Assembly (NCBI GenBank): GCA_964373505.1
Contig: CAYJVC010000001.1
Coordinates: forward strand, 41,630 to 105,629
DNA: 64,000 bases
From: an uncultured Planctomycetia bacterium
GTDB lineage: Bacteria > Omnitrophota > Gorgyraeia > 2-02-FULL-51-18
Direction: 5' to 3'
Position numbers and translations under genes: made by a program. Below are positions 3,025 to 46,442 of the stretch, in pieces (position 1 is the stretch's first letter; the number at the start of each line of letters is the position of its first letter). A model generated the notes under the pieces. The model searched no databases. It saw only the letters and a list, made by a program, of their open reading frames with translations, and was not told the DNA's origin.

Positions 3025-3140
3025 ATGACCCCACCCCCTCATTTTGAGGCGGACTGTTTTTGGGGTTTTTTGAGTCGTATTTGATTCGCCTCGACGCGCT
3101 TTGCGCCTCGGCGCGTAGCGCAAATGAGGGGGTGGGGTGA
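3025..3140 (+). repeat. Structured intergenic element copy E1: arms CCCCACCCCCTCATTT / AAATGAGGGGGTGGGG, right arm contains lysS GTG start
   Basis: 16-bp perfect inverted repeat (3029-3044 vs 3122-3137) flanking ~77 nt of GC hairpins. ATGACCCC at left, GGGGTGA at right. Confidence 0.8.
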
Positions 3141-4600
3141 CAGAACCAAACGATCTTATTAGCGAACGCCGGAAGAAGCTTGAGGCGATCAAGTCCATGG
3201 GGCTGGAGCCTTTCGGAGGCAAGTTCCATAAGCCGCACCTCATCGCATCGGTGGTTGAAGGCTACGAGGAGAGTAAAAAGGTGAGCGTCGCGGGGCGCCT
3301 ATCTTCGATCCGCCTCATGGGCAAAACCGCATTCTGCGACCTAAAGGATGAAAGCGGCCGTATCCAGCTTTACATCAAGCGGGAACTTCTGGGGGAACAG
3401 GGGTTGAAACTTTTTGAACGGCTGGATCTGGGCGATATTGTCGGCGCGGAAGGTGCGCTTTTTAAAACCAAGACCGGCGAGATCTCGATCCACGTCGACA
3501 AACTGACTCTGCTGGCCAAGAGCCTGAGGCCCATGCCTGAAAAATGGCACGGACTTAAGGACGTCGAACAACGGTACCGCCAGCGTTACCTCGACCTCGC
3601 ATCAAATGACACGACCAAAGAGATCTTCAAGAAGCGTTCTTTCGTGATCCGCTCGATCCGCAGGATGTTGGACGAGAAGGGCTATTTGGAGGTGGAAACG
3701 CCCATGATGCATCCGATCCCCGGAGGTGCCGCCGGCAAGCCCTTTAAAACACACCACGAGGCGCTGAACATGACCCTCTATTTACGGGTGGCGCCCGAAC
3801 TTTACCTTAAAAAACTGCTCGTCGGCGGCTTTGACAAAGTGTACGAGATCAACAAAAGTTTCCGGAATGAAGGGATCTCCACGCGCCACAACCCCGAATT
3901 CACGATGCTGGAGGTGTACACCGCGTATGACGATGTGAATGACGTGATGCATTTGACCGAGGAGCTCCTCAAGGGCGCGGCGCTCAGCACGCTCGGTGCC
4001 TTGACCGTCCCCTGGGGTGAGGGGACCCTGGACCTTTCGAAGTGGCCGCGCGTGTCGTTCGCCGACCTCATGAAGAAGAATTTTGACATCAACCCGGAAG
4101 ACCCTGAGCGGGTCTGGATCGAGAGGATGAAAAAAAAAGGCGTGAAACTGGAATCTCAGGACGGCCACGAGCTTTCGCGCACGCAGCTTATCAATATCGT
4201 CGGCGAGATCCTGGAGCCCGGCACGCATCTTTCGCGGAACGGTCACCCTGTTTTTGTGACGGATTATTTCACGGAGCTTTGCCCGCTCGCCAAGAAGAAC
4301 AGGCGGAATCCCCATCTGAGCGACCGTTTTGAGCTTTATATCGGCGGCATGGAGATCGCGAACGGTTACTCGGAGCTTAACGACCCTCTCGAGCAGCGGG
4401 AACGGCTGCTGCGGGAACTGGAGGAGAAGGGCAAACAAAGTACGTTCGAGAGCCTCGATGAGGATTTTTTAAGGGCGCTTGAGCATGGCATGCCTCCGGC
4501 CGGCGGACTCGGCATTGGGATCGACCGGCTCGTGATGATTTTGACCAATCAGCCGTCGATCCGCGAGGTGATCCTTTTTCCTCAGATGAGGAAAGAATAA
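3137..4600 (+). CDS. lysS: Lysyl-tRNA synthetase (class II)
   Basis: 487 aa. N-term ...RRKKLEAIKSMGLEPFGGKF, class II motifs (FRNEG, GGLGIGIDRLVM). GTG start inside element E1. Confidence 0.95.
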   Translation: MTEPNDLISERRKKLEAIKSMGLEPFGGKFHKPHLIASVVEGYEESKKVSVAGRLSSIRLMGKTAFCDLKDESGRIQLYIKRELLGEQGLKLFERLDLGDIVGAEGALFKTKTGEISIHVDKLTLLAKSLRPMPEKWHGLKDVEQRYRQRYLDLASNDTTKEIFKKRSFVIRSIRRMLDEKGYLEVETPMMHPIPGGAAGKPFKTHHEALNMTLYLRVAPELYLKKLLVGGFDKVYEINKSFRNEGISTRHNPEFTMLEVYTAYDDVNDVMHLTEELLKGAALSTLGALTVPWGEGTLDLSKWPRVSFADLMKKNFDINPEDPERVWIERMKKKGVKLESQDGHELSRTQLINIVGEILEPGTHLSRNGHPVFVTDYFTELCPLAKKNRRNPHLSDRFELYIGGMEIANGYSELNDPLEQRERLLRELEEKGKQSTFESLDEDFLRALEHGMPPAGGLGIGIDRLVMILTNQPSIREVILFPQMRKE

Positions 4601-5792: not shown

Positions 5793-6546
5793 CCTCGTTG
5801 CCTCTTCCAGCGCCGTTTTGGCGGCCGATGACCCAAGGGTAGGTTCTTCGAACGAAGAAGCGGGAAGCGGGATCGAAGCGATCGGCTTGCGTAAGGTTTA
5901 CTCGGACGGCGAGCGCGAACTTCAAATATTCAACAATTTGTCTCTTAAGATCCGCAAAGGCGAAGGCGTGGCGATCCTGGGCCCCTCGGGGTCCGGCAAG
6001 ACGACGTTCTTGAATCTCCTTTCAGGCCTGGACGAGCCGGAATCAGGGCAGGTACTATTGAACGGCGTTTCGATCCACGAGCTCAAGGCCACGGAAAAGG
6101 CGCGTTTTATCAACGGGAATGTCGGTTTCATTTTCCAGTTTTATCATCTACTCCCGGAATTCACGGCGCTTGAGAATGTGATGCTCCCCATGCAGATCAG
6201 CAAGCGGCCGGCCCTGCTTCCCGGGGCACGGAAGCGGGCCAAGGAGCTTTTGGACCGCGTGGGATTGGTGGAGCGCATGAAGCATTTCCCGAGCGAGTTG
6301 TCGGGCGGTGAGCAGCAGCGCGTCGCGATCGCGCGAGCGCTCATCCACGAGCCGCCATTTTTATTCTGCGATGAGCCGACCGGAAACCTTGATATTCAGA
6401 AAGGGCTTGAGATCGCGGAGCTTTTGAAGCGTTTGTTCGCCGAAGAGCGCAGGACCGTATTGATAGTGACGCACGACGAGAGAATTGCTAAAATGACGGA
6501 TCGCGTCTGGAATATCGTGGAGCAGCGCTGGGAGAAGAATTCATGA
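5785..6546 (+). CDS. lolD: Lipoprotein-releasing system ATP-binding protein LolD
   Basis: Walker [10 protein letters not shown], signature [15 protein letters not shown], Walker [13 protein letters not shown]. Confidence 0.85.
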
Positions 6547-7421: not shown

Positions 7422-7945
7422 GCTGCGACGAATGCGGAAAAAATAAGGCGACCGTTCATCTCACCGAGATTATCAACGATCAGATCACGAAGCTGAACCT
7501 CTGTGAGACCTGCGCGAAGGAGAAAGGTTCGGACGTGGAACAGCATTTCGGAATCGGAGACCTTTTGGCCGCGCTCTCCGACACGCACACAGCCTCGGCG
7601 ACCGCGGAAGCGCCGGCGATGAAAGGCCGATGCGCGCAGTGCGGGCTGACGTATGATGATTTTAAGAAAATCGGCCGCCTCGGCTGCAGTGACTGCTACA
7701 ACGCTTTCAAACCGAGCCTTGCGCCGCTTCTTAAGAAAATTCACGGATCCAATCAGCATTTGGGCAAGTCCCTTAGCCCGCAGGCGCTCAGTGAACTCAA
7801 GGTTTCTTCCAAGCATCACGATGAGCTTGAGCTCGTGAAGCAGGAGCTTCAAAAGGCGGTGAAGAATGAGGAGTTTGAGGAGGCGGCCGCGCTCCGCGAC
7901 AAGATCAAGTTTCTGGAAAAGAAGATAAAAGAGGGCAAGGCATGA
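7418..7945 (+). CDS. mcsA: McsA-like protein (CxxC zinc-finger pairs + UVR domain), activator of protein-arginine kinase
   Basis: CDECG, CETC, CAQCG, CSDC motifs then UVR motif EEFEEAAALRDKIKFLEKK. Directly upstream of mcsB. Confidence 0.7.
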   Translation: MSCDECGKNKATVHLTEIINDQITKLNLCETCAKEKGSDVEQHFGIGDLLAALSDTHTASATAEAPAMKGRCAQCGLTYDDFKKIGRLGCSDCYNAFKPSLAPLLKKIHGSNQHLGKSLSPQALSELKVSSKHHDELELVKQELQKAVKNEEFEEAAALRDKIKFLEKKIKEGKA

Positions 7946-8058
7946 CCCCATCCCCTCCTTTTTTATTTAGAGAATTGATGAATCCGCCCGCGGCGGGTTC
8001 ATGCGCCGTTTCCCGGATGATGAGTATTGAAGCGGCGCAAAAGGAGGGGATGGGGTGA
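7942..8058 (+). repeat. Structured intergenic element copy E2: arms CCCCATCCCCTCCTTTT / AAAAGGAGGGGATGGGG, bridges mcsA stop (ATGA) and mcsB GTG start (GTGA)
   Basis: 17-bp perfect inverted repeat (7946-7962 vs 8039-8055). Inner hairpins GCGCCG..CGGCGC, ATGAA..TTCAT. An element-spanning 38-codon ORF runs from ATG 7942 to TGA 8056. Confidence 0.8.
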
Positions 8059-20697: not shown

Positions 20698-21559
20698 GGA
20701 ACTCAAAGATCAGCCGAACGTCATCCCGGCGATCAAGGCTGCGCTCGAAAAGGGGCGTTTGGGGCACGCGCTTTTGTTTCAGGGGGGTTCCGATTCGGCC
20801 TCCCGCGAAACAGCGATGGAGCTTGCAAAAGCGCTTTTCTGCGAGGATCTCAAAGAATGGGAGTCTTGTGACGCGTGCCGCCCCTGCCGGCTGGTGGTCC
20901 GCAACGCGCATCCGGATTATCTCAAGGTGTCCCCGCTCGAAGGTTCCGAGGTCGTGAAGATCGGGCAGATCCGGGAGCTTGTGGCGACAGCCAATCTCAA
21001 GCCTTTTGAAGCGCGCTCCAAGCTCTTTGTGATCGATCCGGCCGAGGCGATGAATGAAGAGGCGCAGAGCGCATTCCTTAAGACGCTCGAGGAGCCTCCG
21101 GGGTCCACGCGCTTTGTTCTCATCACCCGGAATCCGGCGGGACTTCTCGAAACCATTCGCTCGCGCTGCCGGCTATTTTCTTTTGCGCCTTCGCGTGAAG
21201 CAGCCTCGAAAGACCCGGAGCTTGAGGGCCTGAAGCGGGAGGCGACCGAGATTTTTCTATCACGAGGCGAGCGGCGTACGCCGGGTCTTCCGGATCTGGC
21301 CAAGTTTGAGCGGGAAGAGGTTCAGGAGCTTTTAGACACGCTCATGGAGTATTTCCGGGATTGTCTCCTCATCCGGGTGGGGGCGGACGCGATGCTTTCG
21401 GGGGAGGAAGATCTTAGCCGCAAACGCAGGGTTGCCGGCGAACGAAGCGAGACCGAGCTTCAAGACTTGATCCAATTTTTTTCAGAAATAAAGGAAAAAG
21501 TTTCCGAAAAGGTGAACTTGAAGCTTGTGGCGTCGGCGCTTTGGGAGGCGGCACCGTGA
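20687..21559 (+). CDS. holB: DNA polymerase III delta-prime subunit
   Basis: AAA+ clamp-loader fold with degenerate Walker A, Zn module CxxC..C..C, SRC-like arginine finger motif SRCRLFSF. Confidence 0.75.
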   Translation: MSFRELKDQPNVIPAIKAALEKGRLGHALLFQGGSDSASRETAMELAKALFCEDLKEWESCDACRPCRLVVRNAHPDYLKVSPLEGSEVVKIGQIRELVATANLKPFEARSKLFVIDPAEAMNEEAQSAFLKTLEEPPGSTRFVLITRNPAGLLETIRSRCRLFSFAPSREAASKDPELEGLKREATEIFLSRGERRTPGLPDLAKFEREEVQELLDTLMEYFRDCLLIRVGADAMLSGEEDLSRKRRVAGERSETELQDLIQFFSEIKEKVSEKVNLKLVASALWEAAP

Positions 21560-21628
21560 CCCCGCCCCCTGATCGTAACGGTCGCGAAGCGATCGGTCGC
21601 CATGGCGACCGATCAGGGGGTGGGGTGA
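21556..21628 (+). repeat. Structured intergenic element copy E3: arms CCCCGCCCCCTGATCG / CGATCAGGGGGTGGGG (one G-U wobble), between holB stop (GTGA) and metG GTG start
   Basis: Arms 21560-21575 vs 21610-21625. Inner perfect 24-bp palindrome GATCGGTCGCCATGGCGACCGATC shares CGATC with right arm. Element length 69 nt keeps left GTG in frame with metG. Confidence 0.8.
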
Positions 21629-28197: not shown

Positions 28198-29335
28198 GCG
28201 CGTGAATTCCCCCCTTTGTACGGCGTGGGTCGAAGTCGACCTTGGCGCGCTACGGAATAATTTGAGACTTATCCGGAGGCGCATTCGGAAGGGCCGGACG
28301 CAAATACTCGCGGTGGTGAAAGCGGACGCCTATGGGCACGGAATGAAGTCCGTCGCAAAGGCGCTGGCCCGGGAGGGTGTGGGTTTTTTTGGTGTCGCCA
28401 ATATTGACGAGGCCATGGAGCTGCGGAGCGTCTGCCCCAGGCAAAAAATCCTCGTGCTCGGGAGCTTTCACGCGAGTCAACTGCTTTTTTTCATTCGCCA
28501 CCGCATCCTGCCGACTGTTTCTTCGGTCGGGGACATCCGGACCTTGGCGCGCACGTTAAGATCTCGAACGTCCCCGTTTCCGGTCCACGTGAAGATCGAC
28601 ACGGGCATGGGCCGGTTGGGGGTTTGGCACGAGGAGATCGAGCCTTTTTTTAAAATTTTAAAGCAGAATCCGAACGTGGGGGTCGAAGGTATTTACACGC
28701 ATTTTTCAAGCGCCGACAAAAAGGATAAAAGATTCACCCGGAAACAGCTCACGGACTTCGGCCGCGCGGTCCAAAAAATAAAGACGCTTGGCTTCCACCC
28801 CCGGTATATTCATGCAGCCAACAGCATGGGCCTCCTCCGCTTTACGAACGCGCATCTTAATCTTGTGAGGCCCGGGATCGTTTTGTATGGTGTTCAGCCC
28901 GATCGGCGCCTGGCGAAACTAGCGGGACTTAAACCCGTTATGTCGCTTAAAACACGGGTGTGCTTCCTTAAGGATGTGAAAAAGGGCTCGAGCATCAGTT
29001 ACGGCGCTTCGTATGTCACGCCCCGCGCGACGCGGATCGCGACGCTTCCCATCGGTTACAGCCATGGTTACCGTGTCGGATTTTCCAACAAGGCGTTTGT
29101 GCTGATCCGTGGCCGGAGGTATCCGGTGGTGGGGCGGGTGACGATGGACCAGACACTTGTGAACGTGGGCCCCGGGGCACGCGTCCGTCGTTGGGAGACG
29201 GTGACCCTTATCGGGCGTGATAACGGAGCGGTTATTTCAGCCGAAGATCTTGCGACGTTGGCGGGAAGCATCCCCTACGAAGTTGTTTGTTCCATCCACA
29301 GCCGCATCCCGCGGCTCTACAAGGGTGTTCGCTAG
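28187..29335 (+). CDS. alr: Alanine racemase
   Basis: PLP-Lys motif VVKADAYGHG, C-terminal beta domain. Confidence 0.9.
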   Translation: MAGKRVNSPLCTAWVEVDLGALRNNLRLIRRRIRKGRTQILAVVKADAYGHGMKSVAKALAREGVGFFGVANIDEAMELRSVCPRQKILVLGSFHASQLLFFIRHRILPTVSSVGDIRTLARTLRSRTSPFPVHVKIDTGMGRLGVWHEEIEPFFKILKQNPNVGVEGIYTHFSSADKKDKRFTRKQLTDFGRAVQKIKTLGFHPRYIHAANSMGLLRFTNAHLNLVRPGIVLYGVQPDRRLAKLAGLKPVMSLKTRVCFLKDVKKGSSISYGASYVTPRATRIATLPIGYSHGYRVGFSNKAFVLIRGRRYPVVGRVTMDQTLVNVGPGARVRRWETVTLIGRDNGAVISAEDLATLAGSIPYEVVCSIHSRIPRLYKGVR

Positions 29336-29405
29336 CCCCATCCCCTGTTTCCTGCGATCGCAAAGCGATCGGTCCACAGAGCGGAGGAAACAGGGGATGG
29401 GGTGG
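29333..29405 (+). repeat. Structured intergenic element copy E4: arms CCCCATCCCCTGTTTCC / GGAAACAGGGGATGGGG, followed by T-rich tract (terminator-like) after alr
   Basis: 17-bp perfect inverted repeat (29336-29352 vs 29384-29400). Inner TGCGATCGCA palindrome. Shares 12-mer AAGCGATCGGTC with E3. GTG in right arm not followed by a plausible gene. Confidence 0.8.
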
Positions 29406-29539: not shown

Positions 29540-31216
29540 ATGGCGAAAATGTCCGGCGCTCAGGCGGTTGTGGAAGCGTTCTCAAAAGAAGGGGTAGAGT
29601 ACGTGTTCGGCCTGCCCGGTGGCGCCTGTCTGCCTCTTTTTGATGCGCTGTACGACGCCAAGTTCAAGGTGATCCTTGTGCGCCATGAACAGGGCGCCGT
29701 GCATATGGCCGAAGGGTATGCGCGCTCAACGGGCCGGCCCGGCGTCGTGGTGGTGACTTCGGGCCCCGGCGCGACGAACACCGTGACCGGCATTGCCGAC
29801 GCTTACATGGATTCAATACCGCTGGTGGTGGTCACGGGCCAGGTGAAGACATTTTTGATCGGCAATGACGCGTTTCAGGAAGCGGATGTGACCGGCATTA
29901 CGCGCCCGGTCACGAAACATAATTACCTCGTAAAAGACGCCGCGGACCTGCCACGCGTGTTGAAAGAAGCGTTTTATATCGCCACGCACGGTCGTCCGGG
30001 GCCGGTGTTGATCGATTTTCCGTCGGATGTGAGCTTGACAGAGATCGATTTTGAGTACCCGTCGAGCGTGAATGTCCGTGGATTCAAGCCGGTGCTTTTG
30101 GGCCATCCCGGTCAGATCCGGAAGGCGTTCGATCTCATCATAAAGTCAAAACGCCCCGTGGTTTACACAGGGGGCGGCGTGATCGTCGCGAACGCTTCGA
30201 AGGAACTCATCGAGTTCGTGCAAAAGACGAATGCTCCTTGCACGAACACGCTCATGGGACTCGGCGGCGTGCCGGGGACGCACCCGCTTTTCATGGGGAT
30301 GCTCGGCATGCACGGCACCGTTTACGCGAATAAGGCCGTGAACGAATGCGATCTTTTGATCGCGGTGGGCGCGCGCTTTGACGACCGGGTGACGGGGGAC
30401 CTTACGAAGTTCGCTCCGAAGGCCAAGATCATCCACATCGACGTCGACCCCTCGGCGATCGCCAAGAACGTGAAGGTCGATGTGCCGATCGTAGGCGATG
30501 TGAAGCAGGTGCTTCAGGAACTCAACAAGATGGTGGGCCCGGTCGATACGAAGGAATGGCTTACGCAGATCGCCGCCTGGAGAAAGGAAAGCCCGCTTCG
30601 TTACGGCAATGACGGCGAGGACGTCCGCCCGCAGTATGCAATCCAGAGGCTTTGTGATATTTTGGGGACTGATGCGATCGTTTCGACGGATGTGGGCCAG
30701 CACCAGATGTGGGCCGCCCAGTATTACGTGTTGAGCGGACCGAACCAATTCCTGACGAGCGGGGGGCTAGGCACGATGGGCTACGGTTTTCCGGCGGCCA
30801 TCGGCGCGCAGTTCGCATTCCCGAAGAAGACGGTGCTCTGTATCACCGGCGACGGATCGTTCCAGATGAATATCCAGGAGATGGCCACCGCGGTGTACAA
30901 CAAGTTGCCCGTAAAGATCGCGATCATCAATAACAATTACCTGGGCATGGTGCGGCAGTGGCAGGAGATCTTTTACAAGCACCGTTATTCCAGTTCCGAG
31001 ATGAGCGGGAATCCTGATTTTGTGAAACTCGCCGAGGCTTATGGCGCCAAAGGCATTCGTGCGACAAAAATGAAAGAGGTGGACGACGCCATTCGATTCG
31101 CGCAGTCGGTGAAGGATGTGCCCTGCGTGATCGATTTTATTGTAAAGGAAGAGGAGAACGTTTACCCGATGATCCCGTCGGGCAAGTCACTCGATCAGCT
31201 GATGGATATGGCCTGA
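29540..31216 (+). CDS. ilvB: Acetolactate synthase large (catalytic) subunit, ThDP-dependent
   Basis: 558 aa. ThDP-binding GDGSFQMNIQEMATA..NN motif, FAD-binding middle domain. Confidence 0.95.
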   Translation: MAKMSGAQAVVEAFSKEGVEYVFGLPGGACLPLFDALYDAKFKVILVRHEQGAVHMAEGYARSTGRPGVVVVTSGPGATNTVTGIADAYMDSIPLVVVTGQVKTFLIGNDAFQEADVTGITRPVTKHNYLVKDAADLPRVLKEAFYIATHGRPGPVLIDFPSDVSLTEIDFEYPSSVNVRGFKPVLLGHPGQIRKAFDLIIKSKRPVVYTGGGVIVANASKELIEFVQKTNAPCTNTLMGLGGVPGTHPLFMGMLGMHGTVYANKAVNECDLLIAVGARFDDRVTGDLTKFAPKAKIIHIDVDPSAIAKNVKVDVPIVGDVKQVLQELNKMVGPVDTKEWLTQIAAWRKESPLRYGNDGEDVRPQYAIQRLCDILGTDAIVSTDVGQHQMWAAQYYVLSGPNQFLTSGGLGTMGYGFPAAIGAQFAFPKKTVLCITGDGSFQMNIQEMATAVYNKLPVKIAIINNNYLGMVRQWQEIFYKHRYSSSEMSGNPDFVKLAEAYGAKGIRATKMKEVDDAIRFAQSVKDVPCVIDFIVKEEENVYPMIPSGKSLDQLMDMA

Positions 31217-31354
31217 TGAATAAATCCGAAGCACGAAATCCGAAATCCGAAACACAAAATTCAAAACAAAGGTTTCGGTCATTCGAATTTAGGGTTTCGA
31301 ATTTGTTTCGTGCTTCGTGCTTCGAATTTAGGATTTAGCACGAAAGGAGGATTT
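31217..31354 (+). repeat. AT-rich repeat-laden spacer between ilvB and ilvN: tandem CGAAATC x3, TTCGAATTT x3, TTCGAATTTAGG x2, forming a ~35-nt imperfect inverted repeat
   Basis: Left half AATCCGAAGCACGAAATCCGAAATCCGAAACAC is near-reverse-complement of right half GGTTTCGAATTTGTTTCGTGCTTCGTGCTTCGAATT. GC ~35% vs ~58% flanks. Confidence 0.6.
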
Positions 31355-32874: not shown

Positions 32875-32983
32875 TGTGACGTTCACGGGTGACGCGAGGC
32901 GGGGCGCCCCATTCGCGCGCAGCGAACCTCAGTTACGCGAGCAAGAATGGGGCTGCCGAGCGGCAGGACCCGTGAACGTCACA
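32875..32983 (+). repeat. Nested palindromic intergenic element (family 2) between ilvC and leuA: outer 16-bp perfect arms TGTGACGTTCACGGGT / ACCCGTGAACGTCACA enclosing three GC hairpins
   Basis: Arms 32875-32890 vs 32968-32983. Inner GGGGCGCCCC (32901-32910), GCCCCATTC..GAATGGGGC (32906-32914/32945-32953), CTGCCGagCGGCAG (32953-32966). Confidence 0.75.
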
Positions 32984-37863: not shown

Positions 37864-38960
37864 AGGCCGACGAGGAGCTTCGGGAGACCATTGCGCTGAG
37901 TCTGGCTGATAGTTTGGGCCCGGTGGCATTCAAAGCGCTTATTGGAAAATACAAAAAACCTTCACGGATCTTAAAAGCCCGCGGATCGGATCTTCGTAAA
38001 GTGACGGGACTCAAGGATGCGGCCGTGAAAGAGATAAAAGATGCGAAACTGCTCGAAAAGGCCGACCGGGAGATCGAGAAGGCGCTCAAGCAGGATGTGC
38101 ATATAGTCACCTGTTTTGACGAGGCTTATCCGGAAGAGCTGAAAGCAATCTATGACCCGCCGATCGCGTTGTATGTGAAAGGGCGCCTGCCCGACGCGCG
38201 CCTTCCAAAAGTGGCCGTCGTCGGCTCAAGGGTATGTTCGCTTTACGGCAGGGGCATGGCGCACGGCATTTCGGAGACGTTGGCCCATAACGGCGTCGTG
38301 GTGGTGAGCGGCCTGGCGCTCGGGATAGACAGCGCCGCGCATGAGGGAGCTTTGTCGGGGGACGGGATCACGATCGCGGTATTGGGCGGCGGACTTTCGA
38401 AGCTTTATCCACCGGACAATAAGCAATTGGCGGCAAAGATCGTCGAAAAAGGCGCCGTCATTTCCGAATACCCTATGGAAATGGAGCCGCTCAAGCAATA
38501 TTTTCCCAGGAGGAACCGCATCATCAGCGGCCTGTCGTGCGGCGTGCTCGTCGTGGAGGCCAAAGAAAAAAGCGGCGCGTTGATCACCGCGAATCTCGCG
38601 TTGGAAGAAGGGCGCGATGTTTTTGCGGTGCCGGGCAACGCCGATTCGGCCCGTTCGCAGGGCACCAATTCGCTTTTGAAACAAGGCGCAAAGCTTGTCA
38701 CTTCGGCCGCGGACATTTTGGAGGAGCTCGAACTGTCGGCTCGCCGACTGCCGCTGAAAAAGAAGGCGCCGGCGCCCTCGCATCCGGTCAGCGCGGATGA
38801 AGAAACAATCTTGTCCATGGTGGACGGCGACGCGCGGCATGTGGACGACTTGATCGAAGGCATCGGCTGGCCTTCGGCGCGGGTCATCGCCGCGCTTTCG
38901 CTTTTGGAGATCAAGGGGTTGGTTCGGCAACTACCCGGAAAGCATTTTGTTACGGCATGA
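37860..38960 (+). CDS. dprA: DNA-processing protein DprA (Smf), Rossmann-like DNA-binding domain + C-terminal wHTH
   Basis: SGLALGIDSAAHEGAL core. Probable GTG start overlapping aroK stop (GTGA). Stop overlaps next ATG (ATGA). Confidence 0.85.
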   Translation: MKADEELRETIALSLADSLGPVAFKALIGKYKKPSRILKARGSDLRKVTGLKDAAVKEIKDAKLLEKADREIEKALKQDVHIVTCFDEAYPEELKAIYDPPIALYVKGRLPDARLPKVAVVGSRVCSLYGRGMAHGISETLAHNGVVVVSGLALGIDSAAHEGALSGDGITIAVLGGGLSKLYPPDNKQLAAKIVEKGAVISEYPMEMEPLKQYFPRRNRIISGLSCGVLVVEAKEKSGALITANLALEEGRDVFAVPGNADSARSQGTNSLLKQGAKLVTSAADILEELELSARRLPLKKKAPAPSHPVSADEETILSMVDGDARHVDDLIEGIGWPSARVIAALSLLEIKGLVRQLPGKHFVTA

Positions 38961-39157
38961 TCACGATACGGCTTAACGGAGAGAAGAAGACGCTGGAAAG
39001 GACGCTCACGCTTGCCGAGCTTCTTTCGGAAATGGGTGTGCCGAAAGAAAAGGTGGTCGTCGAGCGAAACCTCGAGATCATACCGAGGGATCGCCTCGAA
39101 GCCGTTTGCTTGGCGGAAGCGGACGAGGTGGAGATCGTTCATTTCGTCGGCGGCGGT
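38957..39157 (+). other. thiS: ThiS-type sulfur-carrier (beta-grasp, ubiquitin-like) domain forming the N-terminus of the topA ORF
   Basis: MITIRLNGEKKTL...VVVERNLEIIPRDRLEAVCLAEADEVEIVHFVGGG: canonical ThiS length and C-terminal GG(G). No stop codon follows. Confidence 0.85.
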
Positions 39158-41200
39158 GCGGGGGAAAAAGTACTCGTCATCGTGGAATCGCCCGCCAAGT
39201 GCAAGACCATTCACAAATACCTGGGCGACAGTTTTGAAGTGGCCGCCTCGATGGGCCATGTCGTGGACCTGCCTAGAAGCAGGATGGGTATTGACATCGC
39301 GCATAATTTCCAGCCGCAGTACATCGTCGCAAAGGACCGTAAGAAAACCCTGGCGGAATTGAAGAGGAAGGCAAAAGGCAAGAGCGCGATCTACCTGGCC
39401 TGCGACCCTGACCGCGAGGGGGAGGCCATCAGCTGGCATCTAAAGAACCAGCTTGGGAAAGGCAAGAAAGTCGTGCGCGTCGTATTCAATGAGATAACCA
39501 AAGACGCGGTGCAGGAGGCTTTCAAGCACCCTTCCGGCATTGACATGAATCTCGTGGGCGCGCAGCAGGCGCGCCGGGTGTTGGACCGCATTGTCGGCTA
39601 TTCTCTAAGCCCGCTTTTGTGGCAAAAGGTCGGCCGCGGCCTTTCGGCGGGCCGCGTGCAATCCGTGGCGCTTCGTCTCGTCGTTGACCAGGAGCGTAAG
39701 ATCGGGTCATTCGTGGCCGAGGAGTACTGGACGGTTGAGGCCGGGCTTAAGAAGCAGAAAGGCGACACGAAGCCGTTTGTTGCGAAGCTTGAAAAGATCG
39801 GGGACAAAAAGGCCCAGATCCAGGACGGTAAAACCGCCTCTTGGGTCGCCGAGAAAGCCGCAAAGCTTCCGTTCGTCGTCCGGGAAGTCAAAAAGCAAAA
39901 GAAAAAAAGGAACCCCACTCCTCCGTTCACGACCAGCAAACTCCAGCAGGCCGCTTACAATCTTTTAAAGTTCCCAGCCTCCAAGACGATGCGGATCGCG
40001 CAGACGCTTTACGAAGGGGTTGAGTTGGGGAGAGAGGGAAGCGTGGGCCTGATTACCTACATGAGGACCGACTCGGTAAGGTTGTCGGATGTGGCCATTG
40101 AAGAGACGCGCGGGCTTATTGTGAAGCAATATGGGAAGAGCTACCTGCCGCCCCGGCCTAATATTTACAAGTCCAAGAAAGGCGCGCAGCAGGCGCACGA
40201 AGCGATCCGTCCGACCTCGGTGTTCCGCCAGCCGAAGGAGATTGAAAAATACCTGACGCCGGACCAGAATAAATTGTATGCGATCATCTGGCGGCAGGCA
40301 GTTGCCAGCCAAATGACGCCGGCCGTCATCGCGCAAGAGACGGCGGACATCGCCGCAGGCGAGTACTTGTTTCGCGCGACGGGCAGCCGCGTGGAATTTC
40401 CCGGGTGCCTGGCAGTCCAGGGGAAGACGGAGAGCGAGGAGAATGTTCTGCCGAGCCTTTTGCCTGACGAAAAACTCACGCTTTTAGGTTTGAAACACGA
40501 GCAGCATTTTACAAAACCGCCTGCCCGATTTACGGACGCGTCGCTCGTGAAAGCACTTGAAGAAAATGGGATCGGTCGGCCTTCCACCTACGCGCCGACC
40601 CTCCAGACCTTGACCGAGCGGGATTACGTCCGACGCGACGGCGGGAGCCTCGTACCTACGGAGCTTGGCATGCTGGTGACGGACCTTCTTGTGAAGCATT
40701 TTTCAAAAATTCTAGACTTTGAGTTCACGGCCAAAATGGAGGAGGAACTTGACGAAGTGGAAGAGGGCCAGACGGATTGGGTGAGCGTGGTGAGGGAATT
40801 CTACGGCGTGTTCAACGGCCAAATGGACCTTGCGAAGGTCCAAATGGAAACCGTGAAGCGTGTGGCCGAACCCACGGATGAAATCTGCGACCACTGCGGC
40901 AAACCCATGGTGATCAAGTGGGGACGCCGCGGGCGGTTCATGAGTTGTTCGAGCTGGCCGACCTGCCGGAACGCAAAATCCATTTCCACGGATGTGGTAT
41001 GCCCTCAGTGTGGCAAGGGAAAGCTTGTGGCGCGCCGCGCTCGCTCGGGGCGCGGCCGGCCTTTTTTTGGATGCACGGCTTACCCGACGTGCACATTCAT
41101 CACAAACCGCTTGCCTAAAGACGGCGCGCTGCAGACGGCACCCAAAAACCCCGCGGAAGCTGAGGCGGAGCCTTCCGAGACGGAGGGAGAAGGTCAGTGA
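38957..41200 (+). CDS. topA: DNA topoisomerase I with in-frame N-terminal ThiS-like domain (ThiS-TopA fusion ORF)
   Basis: After ThiS GGG and a 4-aa AGEK linker comes the Toprim start KVLVIVESPAKCKTI. Continues through full TopA core and C-terminal Zn-ribbon repeats (CDHCG..C..C, CPQCG..C..C). Confidence 0.9.
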   Translation: MITIRLNGEKKTLERTLTLAELLSEMGVPKEKVVVERNLEIIPRDRLEAVCLAEADEVEIVHFVGGGAGEKVLVIVESPAKCKTIHKYLGDSFEVAASMGHVVDLPRSRMGIDIAHNFQPQYIVAKDRKKTLAELKRKAKGKSAIYLACDPDREGEAISWHLKNQLGKGKKVVRVVFNEITKDAVQEAFKHPSGIDMNLVGAQQARRVLDRIVGYSLSPLLWQKVGRGLSAGRVQSVALRLVVDQERKIGSFVAEEYWTVEAGLKKQKGDTKPFVAKLEKIGDKKAQIQDGKTASWVAEKAAKLPFVVREVKKQKKKRNPTPPFTTSKLQQAAYNLLKFPASKTMRIAQTLYEGVELGREGSVGLITYMRTDSVRLSDVAIEETRGLIVKQYGKSYLPPRPNIYKSKKGAQQAHEAIRPTSVFRQPKEIEKYLTPDQNKLYAIIWRQAVASQMTPAVIAQETADIAAGEYLFRATGSRVEFPGCLAVQGKTESEENVLPSLLPDEKLTLLGLKHEQHFTKPPARFTDASLVKALEENGIGRPSTYAPTLQTLTERDYVRRDGGSLVPTELGMLVTDLLVKHFSKILDFEFTAKMEEELDEVEEGQTDWVSVVREFYGVFNGQMDLAKVQMETVKRVAEPTDEICDHCGKPMVIKWGRRGRFMSCSSWPTCRNAKSISTDVVCPQCGKGKLVARRARSGRGRPFFGCTAYPTCTFITNRLPKDGALQTAPKNPAEAEAEPSETEGEGQ

Positions 41201-44429: not shown

Positions 44430-46359
44430 CGCGGCCAAAGTCGCGCGGTGGATCGTTCACCGGCTTCCACTGAAGCAGTCCTTGTTTCTGGCCCGCGTGA
44501 TCGGCCGAGTGATCTATGCTTTCAACAAACGTAAGCGAGTGGCCTATCAGAATTTAAGGGCGGCGTTCGCGGGCGAGAAGTCCCCGTCCGAGCTTAAGGC
44601 AATCTCAAAAAAGTCGTTTGAGAATCTCGTGATGGCGATCGCGGAGTTCCTGCGCGTGCCGGACATGGACCGCGCCTATTTGGACAAGCACGTGCGCTTC
44701 ATGGGACTTGAGAAATTCCGAAGCCGCTTGCAAGAGAAAAAGGGTCTTATTTTTCTGGCTGCGCACTTTGGGAACTGGGAGCTATTGAGTGTCGCGGGCA
44801 GCATCCTGGGATTTCCAATGGTCGCGCTTGCGCGGGTCCAAAAACATCCGCGATCCGACGCGTTCCTAAATTCCTTAAGGACATGCAAAGGCGCCTCCGT
44901 GATCCACAAGGGCATGCCGCTGCGGGAGATCCTGCGGTCGCTTAAAGACGGCAAGATTGTCGGGATCTTAAGCGACCAGGACGGCGGGCGGAGCGGCACT
45001 TTCGTGAAGTTCTTTAGTCGCTGGTCGTCGACACCGGGAGGCGTGTCGACATTTGCGATGCGCACGGGCTCGCCTATTTTCCCGGTGTTCATGTTCCGCG
45101 AAGGGATCACCGAGCATCGTGTGGAGGTAGAAGGGCCTCTCCAGATGCCGGCCGAGAACTTGAGTCATGAAAAATGCGAGAAAATGGTCCTGCAGCAATT
45201 TGCGGACCTGCTTGAAAAAAAGATCCGGAAAAGCCCTGAGCAATGGCTTTGGGCGCATCGCCGCTGGAAGTCGACTCCGGACCGCTCGGTGATCCTCTTA
45301 AGCGACAAAAAGCAAGGACACCTGAACCAGTCGTTGGCCGTGTTAGAGGCGATCAGGAAGGAGCGTGCCACAAAAGGCTGCGGGCCGGAACATACGCGCT
45401 CCCAAATCCTCGAGGTCCAATACCAAAACCCACGGCGCGAGAAGCTGTTCAGGGCCCTGGCCATTTTATTTTCCGGGCATATTCCCTTTAAATCAAAGAT
45501 ACTCCGGTGGGTGTTGTCGGACCCTACCTACGCCGCGGTCACCCGCACTTATGCGGACATCGTGATCTCCTGCGGCTCGTCACTCTCCGCGCTGAATCTA
45601 CTCGTTAAAGATCTGAACGTTGCCAAATCCGTCGTGATCATGAAACCTCCTTTTTCAACGAAACGTTTTGATCTGGTGATCGCTCCCGGGCATGACCGCT
45701 TAAAGCCGTCCGGCAATGTGTTTGTCACCCGCACAAGTCCTTCACTCGTTTCGGAAGGATACCTGAAAGAGCGGGCCGAATATTTTGCTAAGAGCCTGGA
45801 GGAGCTCAACGGTTCCAAGCGCATTGGTCTTCTCGTAGGCGGCGACACAGAGCGCCTGAAATTTTCAAAAGAGTATTTGGAAAAATTCTTGGAACGTCTG
45901 GGCCGTTTCGGCGCCGAGTCCGGCGCTCTCATCTTAGCGACTTCCTCGAGGCGCACGCCGGCCTGGGCGGCCCAGCTCATGAAAGAATTGTTCAAGGACC
46001 GTAAGCGATGTCCGCTTCTTGTGATCGCGAACGAATCCAATGCCGACGGGGTTGTCGGCGGCATTTTGGGCTTATCCGATGCGGTCGTGGTTTCCGGCGA
46101 GTCGATATCCATGGTGTCGGAAGCGGTCTCTTCGGGGAAACCCGTACTCGTATTCATGCCTTCGGACCGGACGCGTGTAAAGCCTAAACACGAGGACTTT
46201 TTGAGACGCCTGGAGAAGGAAAGATTGATCGTGCGGGCCGGCCCGGACAATATTTCGGGGGCCTTGGAGAACTCCCTGAGCCGACCGGAGCGCGCGACCC
46301 CGGTGTTCTCGGGGGATCTGGATGTGTTGAGTGAAGCGGTGAAAAAGGTGGCGGGATGA
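44392..46359 (+). CDS. Bi-domain protein: lipid A late acyltransferase (LpxL/HtrB family) fused to an ELM1/DUF1022-like domain
   Basis: N-terminal ~290 aa LPLAT acyltransferase (HFGNWE catalytic HX4D-like), C-terminal ~350 aa ELM1-like putative nucleotide-sugar transferase (GHLNQS..., VIMKPP). Confidence 0.65.
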   Translation: MKKILLEDALILSAAKVARWIVHRLPLKQSLFLARVIGRVIYAFNKRKRVAYQNLRAAFAGEKSPSELKAISKKSFENLVMAIAEFLRVPDMDRAYLDKHVRFMGLEKFRSRLQEKKGLIFLAAHFGNWELLSVAGSILGFPMVALARVQKHPRSDAFLNSLRTCKGASVIHKGMPLREILRSLKDGKIVGILSDQDGGRSGTFVKFFSRWSSTPGGVSTFAMRTGSPIFPVFMFREGITEHRVEVEGPLQMPAENLSHEKCEKMVLQQFADLLEKKIRKSPEQWLWAHRRWKSTPDRSVILLSDKKQGHLNQSLAVLEAIRKERATKGCGPEHTRSQILEVQYQNPRREKLFRALAILFSGHIPFKSKILRWVLSDPTYAAVTRTYADIVISCGSSLSALNLLVKDLNVAKSVVIMKPPFSTKRFDLVIAPGHDRLKPSGNVFVTRTSPSLVSEGYLKERAEYFAKSLEELNGSKRIGLLVGGDTERLKFSKEYLEKFLERLGRFGAESGALILATSSRRTPAWAAQLMKELFKDRKRCPLLVIANESNADGVVGGILGLSDAVVVSGESISMVSEAVSSGKPVLVFMPSDRTRVKPKHEDFLRRLEKERLIVRAGPDNISGALENSLSRPERATPVFSGDLDVLSEAVKKVAG

Positions 46360-46442
46360 CCCCATCCTCTCCTTTGAAATTTTCAATTTTAGCGCGGTGC
46401 GCTGAGGCGACTTTGTCGCCTCGAAAGGAGGGGATGGGGTGA
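46356..46442 (+). repeat. Structured intergenic element copy E5: arms CCCCATCCTCTCCTTTG / CGAAAGGAGGGGATGGGG (one U-G wobble), bridges acyltransferase stop (ATGA) and GT4-GT9 GTG start (GTGA)
   Basis: Arms 46360-46376 vs 46422-46439. Inner perfect hairpins AGCGCggtGCGCT and GAGGCGACtttGTCGCCTC. An element-spanning 28-codon ORF runs from ATG 46356 to TGA 46440. Confidence 0.8.

Follow-up and report, generated by a model that had tools for sequence, protein, structure and literature searches.

A probable MITE-like family of mobile palindromes docking at start codons in Candidatus Omnitrophota

Palindromic elements at gene junctions in the window

The window, i.e. the whole 64-kb stretch of DNA that was analysed, carries lysS, mcsA/mcsB, holB/metG, alr and the lpxL-like/GT4-GT9 genes, the identities of which were confirmed. 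It also contains five elements of one family, 66-110 bp each, with the complementary termini CCCCAYCCCCT.../...AGGGGRTGGGG. The copy under study, E2, is located at the mcsA/mcsB junction. In the following list, old and new refer to the start codons at the left and right borders of an element, respectively; the frame classes A, B and C are described in the next section.

3025 to 3140, plus strand: E1, at the lysS start (from sequence, arm pairing, profiles and fold). Old ATG 3025-3027; left TGA 3026-3028; core 3029-3137 (109 nt); arms 3029-3044 and 3122-3137; new GTG 3137-3139; right TGA 3138-3140. Frame class C: mini-ORF from the old ATG, MTPPPHFEADCFWGFLSRI, with its stop inside the element at 3082-3084.
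7942 to 8058, plus strand: E2, at the mcsA/mcsB junction (from sequence, arm pairing, profiles and fold). Old ATG 7942-7944, overlapping the mcsA stop TGA 7943-7945; core 7946-8055 (110 nt); arms 7946-7962 and 8039-8055; GGAGG Shine-Dalgarno 8041-8045; new GTG 8055-8057, overlapping the right TGA 8056-8058. Frame class A: 38-codon mini-ORF 7942-8058, MTPSPPFLFRELMNPPAAGSCAVSRMMSIEAAQKEGMG and a stop.
21556 to 21628, plus strand: E3, at the holB/metG junction (from sequence, arm pairing and fold). Old GTG 21556-21558, overlapping the holB stop TGA 21557-21559; core 21560-21625 (66 nt); new GTG 21625-21627; right TGA 21626-21628. Frame class B: 69-nt insertion (23 codons), in frame and open; possible N-terminal extension TPPPDRNGREAIGRHGDRSGGG.
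29333 to 29405, plus strand: E4, directly 3' of the alr stop codon (from sequence, arm pairing and fold). TAG 29333-29335; core 29336-29402 (67 nt); right flank TGG 29403-29405.
46356 to 46442, plus strand: E5, at the lpxL-like/GT4-GT9 junction (from sequence, arm pairing, profiles and fold). Old ATG 46356-46358, overlapping the upstream stop TGA 46357-46359; core 46360-46439 (80 nt), with one U:G (left arm, 46368); GGAGG 46426-46430; new GTG 46439-46441, overlapping the right TGA 46440-46442. Frame class A: mini-ORF MTPSSPLKFSILARCAEATLSPRKEGMG and a stop.

All five copies had been predicted at these positions, and their motifs occurred far above chance in the 64-kb window: 1) CCCCAYCCCC gave eight matches on both strands against 0.41 expected, a number reached by none of 100 shuffles, and 2) the paired-arm pattern gave eight matches against 0.00 expected. 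The terminal inverted repeats described in the original prediction had arms of 16-18 nt, 94-100% complementary in the window copies, and the 12-mer said to be common to the interiors of E3 and E4, as well as the hairpin modules common to E1 and E5, were seen in the sequence. Four copies had NTGA on the left and TGA on the right; E4 was atypical in lying away from a start codon (the next gene, ilvB, starts at 29540) and in having flanks other than TGA.

A search of metagenomes returned 92 matches, from which about 23 distinct true elements were kept; many others were rejected as chance matches or other repeats (RHS-type coding, cyanobacterial-type, an unplaced repeat and a CRISPR array). Most of the additional copies came from a pattern demanding TGA on both sides, and copies at other targets are therefore under-sampled; the metagenome pattern also held the right arm fixed. 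A looser pattern applied to genome contigs yielded, among the matches listed, mostly unrelated G-run/C-run palindromes. Such palindromes are common in many genomes. The host phylum was Omnitrophota, to which the GC-rich host contigs were assigned only weakly. No clear gene context was found at loci L141, L160, L171, L202 and L206, on GC-rich contigs, or at L187 (48% GC). All copies seen were single, none lying in a tandem array.

Start codons and reading frames

The target was a TGA whose first two bases close a start codon and whose A occupies +4 (ATGA, GTGA or TTGA), so that a TGA stood on both sides of the inserted element. In 27 copies the base preceding the left TGA, left free in the search pattern, was A, G or T; C was absent, for which the probability is 4e-4 at a C frequency of 25%. 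Among the copies not ascertained by flank, six of seven were at starts, compared with about 19% of tolerable TGA/TCA sites (p = 3e-4), the p-values here and below being optimistic because copies within one subfamily are not independent. At the right border, the last G of the element and the TG of the flank made a new GTG in the frame of the host gene, with the G-run of the right arm 5-6 nt upstream; in one copy the terminal G had mutated to A, giving an ATG start. The sequence thus agreed with the original prediction that the right arm provides a run of purines resembling a Shine-Dalgarno, together with a GTG. Long ORFs with N-termini typical of their families began at this GTG in 22 of 28 copies. 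The right-hand GTGs had further been called authentic starts, which accords with family profiles aligning from residues 1-14 counted from the GTG, but E3 is ambiguous, since its ORF is open from the old GTG and either codon could be the true start of metG. Overlooked previously, along with the open frame and the frame classes described below, was the persistence at the left border of the old start codon with its own ribosome-binding site. Embedding of the upstream stop, proposed for the whole family, was seen in 15 of 27 copies, i.e. about half; the universal feature is the start codon.

Reading from the old start (ATG-ACC-CCA-YCC-CCT) leads into the element as M-T-P-(P/S)-P. Inside the elements there was one stop in the frame of the old start codon, versus 39 and 25 in the other two frames, and this frame was open in 26 of 27 copies against 12.4 expected, none of 2000 shuffles reaching 26. 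The copies fell into frame classes A, B and C at a ratio of 15:12:1 (p = 0.003), the mode tracking element length modulo 3. Class A (15 copies) had a mini-ORF, MTP[P/S]P..., that ran without a stop as far as the right TGA, which overlapped the GTG or ATG by 4 nt; in class B (12-13 copies) the insertion kept the frame (L+3 = 66-87 nt), and every copy was open and continuous with the host ORF; the single class C copy was also the only one with an internal stop. A Shine-Dalgarno-type right arm (GGAG/GAGG) was found in 13 of 15 class A copies versus 0 of 12 in class B (Fisher p = 6e-6). The peptide interiors were unrelated across copies and only the ends were alike, MTP[P/S]P... at the beginning and ...GGGV or ...EG[M/V]G at the end. 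MetRS is annotated with an element-encoded extension in two genomes, with unrelated extension interiors; the window MetRS has 543 aa in the NCBI annotation, including the 23-aa extension encoded by E3.

By this architecture, ribosomes would start at the old codon, and in the approximately half of the copies with a 4-nt overlap they would finish the upstream gene and reinitiate there. They would then translate through the element and melt its terminal helix. In class A they would terminate at the right TGA and reinitiate at the GTG overlapping it by 4 nt, helped by the GGAG/GAGG of the right arm, which would make the element a relay of -4 translational couplings; in class B they would continue in frame to give a host protein with an N-terminal extension of 22-29 aa. 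Use of the old start, reinitiation at the GTG and the extended proteins are all inferred from sequence. Since the element is open in the old-start frame, ribosomes should pass along it and open the helix, instead of being held off by an anti-Shine-Dalgarno arm, and it is probably this translation-preserving architecture that lets essential genes tolerate an insertion at their starts. Loss of a surviving copy is probably difficult, as a deletion that is not precise would take the gene start with it. The predicted helix (about -50 to -68 kcal/mol) begins at +4 and should hinder initiation at the old start too, which bears on the approximately 12 copies lacking an upstream overlapping gene.

The bias to start codons may reflect targeting, or selection alone. 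We regard it as improbable that the transposition machinery actively recognises translation starts and that the helix, in which the old start region is buried as well as the new Shine-Dalgarno and GTG, forms a portable translational governor together with the stalling-prone MTPPP/MTPSP mini-ORF. If so, unrelated housekeeping genes such as lysS, metG, mcsB, mlaF, coaE, aroK, fmt, dxr and others would have been brought under one control, e.g. via upstream translation, EF-P or helicase activity, as a regulon assembled by transposition.

Filled and empty sites, stem structure and mobility

Orthologous junctions of relatives were compared, as had been suggested in the original prediction, and presence/absence polymorphism was found between close relatives. 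Filled and empty sites were observed for mcsA/mcsB, lysS, mlaF (reciprocal), holB/metG and alr/ilvB, the junctions of relatives being plain ATGA/GTGA/TTGA at all of these but mlaF, where one relative had a copy and the window site was empty. The E2 site was an empty 4-nt overlap in L121 (McsB 92% identity, gcaagccATGAgcgtcaag), L122, L123 and L124; the E1 site was empty in L122 (aagttATGActatcg), and no element was found in the lysS region of L123 and L217-L230. For E3, L231 had a filled metG site with compensated changes in the arms, while the metG site of L232 and L233 was empty; L232 was also empty at the E4 site (gcgtTAAtttttcgttggaca). The junction of E5 was filled by an 83-nt family member in the distant relative L198, the GT protein of which was 45% identical. 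Removal of an element and one TGA restored the sequence of the empty site. The distribution was patchy, as no copies were found in 190 kb of syntenic DNA from other relatives; in one metagenome, three copies at unrelated loci were 92-94% identical.

Judged by these junctions, the elements are insertions rather than conserved leaders, and their insertion polymorphism between close relatives is the behaviour of selfish mobile DNA. The palindromic repeat family of REP/MITE type at gene junctions that had been predicted is supported. GC-rich hairpins do lie at gene junctions, and G-run/C-run palindromes are widespread, as would be expected of ancestral conserved intercistronic leaders, ordinary terminators or a chance motif of a GC-rich genome; against these stand the motif and pair counts far above shuffles, the empty orthologous sites with intact 4-nt overlaps and the near-identical copies at unrelated loci, which make such origins very hard to credit. 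Intrinsic terminators were rejected, as the stems are followed by TGA and coding sequence and not by a T-run. The most probable reading, to which we give a probability of roughly 0.75, is that of a non-autonomous, MITE-like family of mobile palindromes of Candidatus Omnitrophota, docking at start codons with translation preserved.

Well below the 500 bp that bounds a MITE, the core was 63-116 nt long and its sole ORF was a peptide of 19-38 codons unrelated to enzymes. Apart from a XerC/D-type recombinase, the search for a transposase in the window revealed housekeeping genes only; neither the window nor the fetched loci yielded a transposase or a full-length parent element bearing the family termini, and the fetched loci showed no lone arms adjoining long ORFs or bounding long elements. 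The lack of a cognate insertion sequence is weak evidence, because only about 1 Mb was examined. TGA was present on both sides in six of the seven copies found without a flank constraint, and these direct repeats may stem from a genuine target duplication or from a target TGA combined with one carried by the element.

The terminal stem is 16 bp long, or 17 bp with a flanking A:T, with two or three short hairpins inside it, each perfectly paired but variable in sequence. The outer CCCCAYCCCCT was conserved; among the 17 stem pairs, covariation was seen at arm positions 6 and 12-16, with a sharp end after position 16. RNA folding, also suggested originally, gave z-scores of -7.3 to -9.0 for the predicted folds, in which the Shine-Dalgarno and GTG are indeed buried in a 17-bp helix as claimed. 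It has been proposed that the family is a domesticated RNA-level translational control or insulator, the C-rich left arm acting as an anti-Shine-Dalgarno that sequesters the Shine-Dalgarno-like run and GTG under selection on the sense transcript. The very stable predicted helix and the covarying stem pairs are in keeping with this proposal, and so are two compensated double changes in the normally invariant core of the E3-site element in a genome with a 76% identical MetRS, and arm mismatches that in the unbiased sample were all G:U on the sense strand. However, copies are present or absent between close relatives even at essential genes, which does not support domestication, and the host genes share no function. 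The G:U wobbles, taken originally as a sign of sense-strand RNA selection, are confounded by arm composition, right-arm constraint and ascertainment: the bias carries no weight because the left arm is C-rich and any transition there yields G:U, and it is also explained by constraint on the right arm as a ribosome-binding site. Sense and antisense folds were of about equal stability (18 of 28, not significant), and the loops of the inner hairpins, mostly 3 nt, were strand-symmetric (TTC 12, GAA 11), with no enrichment of UNCG or GNRA tetraloops. Such loops, together with about equal sense and antisense stability, look like DNA palindromy, the perfect inner hairpins being typical of DNA palindromes and not of RNA hairpins under selection. 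Selection is not needed for compensated changes, as template switching in quasipalindromes, an established mutational mechanism, also yields them; and with the frame open from the old start, the helix should be unwound by ribosomes and not sequester stably. A domesticated riboregulator is therefore considered unlikely.

As to how a MITE-like family of this kind moves, the palindromy of DNA type would also suit a single-strand hairpin moved by an HUH/Y1 enzyme, as for REP/REPIN-RAYT and IS200/IS605, and inserted 3' of a TGA with its own terminal TGA, which implies that there is no true target duplication and that the stem is the enzyme substrate. Several features agree with this mechanism: 1) the stem structure is kept while its inner 5 bp vary, as for a structure-recognising enzyme, 2) stem length is fixed and the end sharp, 3) the inner hairpins are perfect palindromes, 4) one fixed trinucleotide abuts the stem foot on both sides, and 5) the sense strand of co-oriented genes has the lagging-strand template sequence (the flanking genes are all on the plus strand and the cumulative GC skew rises). 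On the other hand, neither the window nor the fetched loci showed a Y1/RAYT gene, REPs have GTAG or CGTC tags and 20-40 bp (PMC3733652), both features being absent here, and the ends of IS200/IS605 are separate subterminal hairpins and not mutually complementary termini. A DDE transposase acting on 16-bp terminal inverted repeats with a 3-bp duplication explains the ends equally well, and we regard the HUH/Y1 mechanism as a tentative alternative, less likely than not.

Relation to described elements

The family had been thought not to belong to a described element class. This holds for Rfam, in which nothing matched at gathering score and no match at E <= 5 overlapped any element, but MIRUs are a described analogue (PMC12548453, PMC3184786). 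MIRUs (Supply et al. 1997) are GC-rich, imperfectly palindromic dispersed repeats of 40-100 bp within operons (PMC12548453, PMC3184786); they insert at start codons, and their internal ORF overlaps the neighbours with -4 spacing, which is thought to preserve expression by coupling (PMC12548453). The Omnitrophota elements resemble them in being short GC-rich palindromes with filled and empty sites, short direct repeats at the ends, insertion at start codons and a -4 coupled ORF. They differ in their near-perfect 16-17 bp complementary termini, the CCCCAYCCCCT core and the different phylum; in bringing their own Shine-Dalgarno and the G of the new GTG; and in being single, not tandem, with a second, in-frame fusion mode. 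MIRUs were set beside the family by description and not by sequence, and the relation appears to be an analogy of mechanism, not membership.

Rickettsia palindromic elements (RPEs; Ogata et al. 2000) are mobile palindromes of about 100-150 bp, without stops, located in frame in unrelated housekeeping genes and translated within the host protein (PMC10969869). Class B copies such as E3 in metG are likewise open, in frame and predicted to be part of the host protein. However, RPEs are internal to proteins and have conserved peptides, whereas the Omnitrophota element lies directly after codon 1 with only the peptide ends conserved, and about half of its copies use a stop/start overlap instead of fusion.

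MITEs (Correia/NEMIS, ERIC, RUP and Chunjie) are similarly small, with terminal inverted repeats, flanking direct repeats and filled and empty sites (PMC10969869, PMC3184786), other common features being co-transcription with the adjacent genes and an RNA stem-loop that is predicted to be stable. A typical MITE has a high AT content, lies between genes and affects promoters, IHF sites or processing by RNase III (PMC10969869, PMC3184786); docking at start codons with a rebuilt Shine-Dalgarno and start is not reported for MITEs in these two sources, and for the Omnitrophota family no cognate insertion sequence was found. With REP/REPIN-RAYT and IS200/IS605-derived elements the family shares GC-rich hairpins conserved in structure and variable in sequence, with a fixed short tag at the stem foot (PMC3733652), but its tag is TGA, not GTAG/CGTC, it is larger with several hairpins, and its termini pair together; no RAYT, TnpA or Y1 gene was identified in the window. 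Neisseria REP2 and Borrelia upstream repeats also supply host ORFs with a fused ribosome-binding site and start codon (PMC3184786), but REP2 is without terminal inverted repeats, brings a promoter and ATG, and replaces the 5' region instead of inserting inside the start codon.

Taken on its sequence, the family is best described as a MITE-like selfish element apparently built to preserve translation, resembling MIRUs in docking at start codons and RPEs in its in-frame mode. It offers an answer, readable from sequence, to how selfish DNA colonises a compact genome with almost no intergenic space: an element that lands inside the start codon would rebuild the stop/start overlap, the Shine-Dalgarno, the start codon and an open frame. 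MIRU-like docking in a distant, uncultivated phylum suggests convergence on this strategy, which is possibly widespread. The copies also provide ready-made constructs with which to set termination-reinitiation against RNA-unfolding models of translational coupling. There are also consequences for annotation, as gene callers extend proteins with element peptides or call spurious 30-aa genes; in the case of the window MetRS, the annotated protein is 23 aa too long, or the extension is genuine. In addition, the presence or absence of copies could mark Omnitrophota strains.

Palindromic elements in the window and in relatives

All five copies described in the original prediction were found in place on the forward strand, at the following positions (flanking genes according to NCBIfam).

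E1, 3025-3140, + strand: lysS start (lnt/lysS)
E2, 7942-8058, + strand: between mcsA and mcsB
E3, 21556-21628, + strand: between holB and metG
E4, 29333-29405, + strand: after alr (alr/(ilvB))
E5, 46356-46442, + strand: between an lpxL-like gene and a GT4-GT9 fusion gene

CCCCAYCCCC occurred 8 times on both strands of the window, compared with 0.41 expected (8 reached in 0/100 shuffles), and the paired left-arm/right-arm pattern gave 8 matches versus 0.00 expected. A repeat finder delimited arms of 17-18 nt with 94-100% complementarity in E1, E2, E3 and E5, and of 24 nt with 92% complementarity in E4. Every window copy was predicted to fold into a single long terminal helix around two or three local hairpins, with free energies of -49 to -69 kcal/mol and z-scores of -7.3 to -9.0. 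McsB and MetRS homologues placed the host in Candidatus Omnitrophota.

A metagenome scan with the pattern TGACCCC...AGGGGRTGGGGTGA returned 92 loci, of which about 23 were distinct true members; most of these added copies were selected by a pattern requiring TGA at each flank and an exact right arm, subfamily copies are not independent of each other, and gene starts on metagenomic contigs were assigned by inference. Host GC ranged from 45 to 71% across members, and the GC-rich host tested (n=1) also grouped, weakly, with Omnitrophota. The terminal stem had 16 pairs, or 17 counting the flanking A:T. Arm positions 1-11 were conserved as CCCCAYCCCCT, with position 6 covarying as C:G or U:A, and positions 12-16 varied among copies (at least 15 different 5-mers) yet remained complementary. 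The stem ended sharply: position 17 was unpaired in 22/27 copies and position 18 in 21/27. No conservation of the interior was found across subfamilies; short perfect hairpins were always formed.

Insertion at start codons

Removal of an element together with one TGA in silico yielded ATGA or GTGA, predicting plain 4-nt start/stop overlaps in relatives. Comparison of orthologous junctions revealed these overlaps as predicted, identifying the elements as insertions (loci fetched from other genomes and metagenomes carry L-numbers).

Filled and empty junctions
mcsA/mcsB: window filled (E2), ggcaaggcATGA[110 nt]TGAgcgtcaaag; L121 (McsB 92% identical) empty, ggcaagccATGAgcgtcaag
mcsA/mcsB: three further relatives empty, with TTGA or GTGA
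lysS start: window filled (E1); L122 empty, aagttATGActatcg
mlaF start: window empty, cagacgATGAtagagg; L122 filled by an 86-nt member, ATGA CCCCATCTCC...GGGGATGGGG TGA
holB/metG: window filled (E3); two relatives empty; third relative filled by a different 66-nt member
alr/ilvB: window filled (E4); L232 empty

Since sites were found filled and empty, three 107-nt copies from a single metagenome (92-94% mutual identity) had unrelated flanks, and other relatives lacked any copy in about 190 kb of the same syntenic region, the family behaves as a mobile element with patchy lineage distribution. It was also noticed that the lpxL-like/GT4-GT9 junction was filled in two hosts (window, 46356-46442; L198, 394-482) whose GT proteins were only 45% identical, reflecting either retention of a very old insertion or repeated use of one site.

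The right-hand GTG had been proposed as the downstream start, and NCBIfam profiles indeed aligned from the first residues of the proteins begun there. In 22/28 copies overall, it opened a long ORF whose N-terminus could be recognised, including CoaE-, AroK-, Fmt-, Dxr-, ABC ATPase- and response-regulator-like ones. Embedding of the upstream stop, also proposed, held for 15/27 copies and failed as a general feature, so that the constant feature is the start codon, not the stop. The base preceding the left TGA, which the scan pattern left unconstrained, was mostly A, sometimes G or T and never C in 27 copies (probability 4e-4), giving the three start codons in about their usual proportions. Against a window background of roughly 89 intergenic TGA/TCA sites, 36 TGA stops and 30 NTGA starts, 6/7 copies found without flank constraint lay at starts (p = 3e-4). 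The exception was E4, located after a TAG stop with flanks TAG/TGG.

The element ends fit a DDE transposase acting on 16-bp terminal inverted repeats with a 3-bp TGA duplication, and they agree equally well with single-strand insertion by an HUH/Y1 mechanism on the 3' side of TGA. A search for a transposase among the window genes turned up a XerC/D-type recombinase and otherwise nothing but housekeeping genes; in the fetched loci, no long element bounded by the family's termini was seen.

Open frames and their two classes

Because only TGA is repeated at both ends, the old ATG, GTG or TTG and its own upstream ribosome-binding site persist at the left border, a feature absent from the original prediction, as was the open frame that follows. 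Conceptual translation from the old start gave M-T-P-(P/S)-P and continued into the element. This frame contained 1 stop across 27 elements, compared with 39 and 25 in the other two, and was open in 26/27 elements versus 12.4 expected from interior shuffles (26 reached in 0/2000). The interior peptides were unrelated, so the conserved property is openness and not the peptide.

Element length modulo 3 defined three classes. Class A comprises 15 copies, E2 and E5 among them, in which a mini-ORF of 28-38 codons stops exactly at the right TGA, with a 4-nt overlap with the new GTG. In the 13 class B copies, among them E3, the inserted length is divisible by 3 and the frame runs on without a stop into the host gene. 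The one class C copy, E1, would cross the GTG out of frame and is the sole copy with an internal stop. Without L231, the A:B:C ratio was 15:12:1, differing from equal thirds (p = 0.003). A GGAG/GAGG Shine-Dalgarno (SD) sequence was present in the right arm of 13/15 class A and 0/12 class B copies (Fisher p = 6e-6, a significance inflated by subfamily kinship). In one copy, a terminal G to A change made the new start ATG. In the L165 member (6380-6498), 13 nt of the right end are duplicated (...GGTGGTGGGG TGA GGGGATGGGG TGA); the second GTG is the true start of a ferrochelatase-like gene, and the second TGA lies in the frame of the mini-ORF.

Gene calls are systematically distorted by these elements. 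The window MetRS as annotated by NCBI (P0121, 543 aa) starts at the old GTG with the N-terminus MTPPPDRNGREAIGRHGDRSGGGV and contains a 23-aa element-encoded peptide (21556-21627), the N-terminus of a 76% identical MetRS from a relative being MTPPLDLAPSAPGAPRREKSSGGV; likewise, a 32-aa "gene" was called on the mlaF element in L122.

In the most likely mechanism, ribosomes would begin translation at the old start codon, or restart there once the upstream gene is finished, enter the element by translation while unwinding the terminal helix, and then either stop at the GTGA overlap and reinitiate or pass through in frame. Such a mechanism would unite RNA unfolding with termination-reinitiation at -4 overlaps, the two models accepted for translational coupling (PMC12548453, PMC6728339). 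Judged from sequence, this translation-preserving architecture would explain the tolerance of the elements at essential genes. As the gene start stays intact only after precise excision, it also suggests that the element is entrenched at its sites.

Stem covariation and the metG copy in L231, whose otherwise invariant core has undergone two compensated double changes (CCCCACCACTC pairing with AAGTGGTGGGG), show that pairing is maintained, without telling the RNA and DNA levels apart. The original prediction had argued for sense-strand RNA selection from G:U wobbles; this argument is confounded, since any transition in the C-rich left arm gives G:U, the right arm is constrained as a ribosome-binding site, and the scan pattern fixed the right arm. 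The predicted folds also speak against selection specifically on RNA structure: sense and antisense folds were about equally good (18/28), and among 78 predicted hairpin loops, 53 were of 3 nt, TTC (12) was as frequent as its complement GAA (11), and UNCG and GNRA were not enriched. Template switching in quasipalindromes, a mutational process known to produce compensated changes, could preserve arm complementarity in the absence of selection, as could a structure-recognising transposase.

Known elements and other repeats

MIRUs, as reported in PMC12548453 (citing Supply et al. 1997) and PMC3184786, are mobile, insert at start codons with short direct repeats and contain an ORF that is linked to the host gene by coupling at -4 spacing; they are the closest described analogue. 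The in-frame mode has its analogue in RPEs (PMC10969869). REP/RAYT tags (PMC3733652) are absent from the Omnitrophota family. No Rfam family matched the elements, and the MITE reviews consulted described no element that, where it inserts, rebuilds both an SD and a start codon. The family differs from known start-codon-docking repeats in its Omnitrophota host, in long near-perfect termini that share the C4-A-Y-C4-T core, in bringing an SD and a start of its own, and in having two frame modes.

Other repeats were also noticed. Between ilvC and leuA (window, 32875-32983), a different palindrome with 16-bp perfect arms (TGTGACGTTCACGGGT / ACCCGTGAACGTCACA, 77 nt between) looks like an insertion from another family, given that the gap is only 14 nt in L232. 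An AT-rich inverted repeat between ilvB and ilvN (window, 31221-31330; TAAATCCGAAGCACGAAATCCGAAA ... TTTCGTGCTTCGTGCTTCGAATTTA), where the gap is about 93 nt versus 9 nt in L232, may represent a third small insertion family. Hymenobacter and Devosia records and several further loci (L056, L091, L079, L093, L109, L042 and others among the matches listed) contained a widespread long palindrome, CCCCACCCCCGGCCCCTCCCC...GGGGAGGGGCCGGGGGTGGGG, with arms of 34-41 nt and an architecture unrelated to the Omnitrophota family. About 147 nt with tandem ATGAGTG-like units and an imperfect palindrome separated ABC ATPase and aminotransferase genes in L219 (6287-6432) and L220 (4079-4224), and was missing from the otherwise near-identical L217 and L218 (gap 13 nt). 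In L122, a 567-nt intergenic region upstream of lysS (1257-1822) contained a long inverted repeat (gctttaagaacaccttttcg ... gaaaaggtgttcttaaagc), and a small gene with 23S_rRNA_IVP/bAvd domains lay downstream (3321-3707). This might be a diversity-generating retroelement remnant. The longest topoisomerase I ORF (window, 38957-41200) matched ThiS N-terminally (residues 4-67); either ORF calling has merged a small ThiS/MoaD-like gene with it, or the fusion is real. The metagenome scan also caught by chance a CRISPR-like array with the repeat CCCCGCGCGAGCGGGGATGAGCC (L201, 46-366; L215, 11170-11246).
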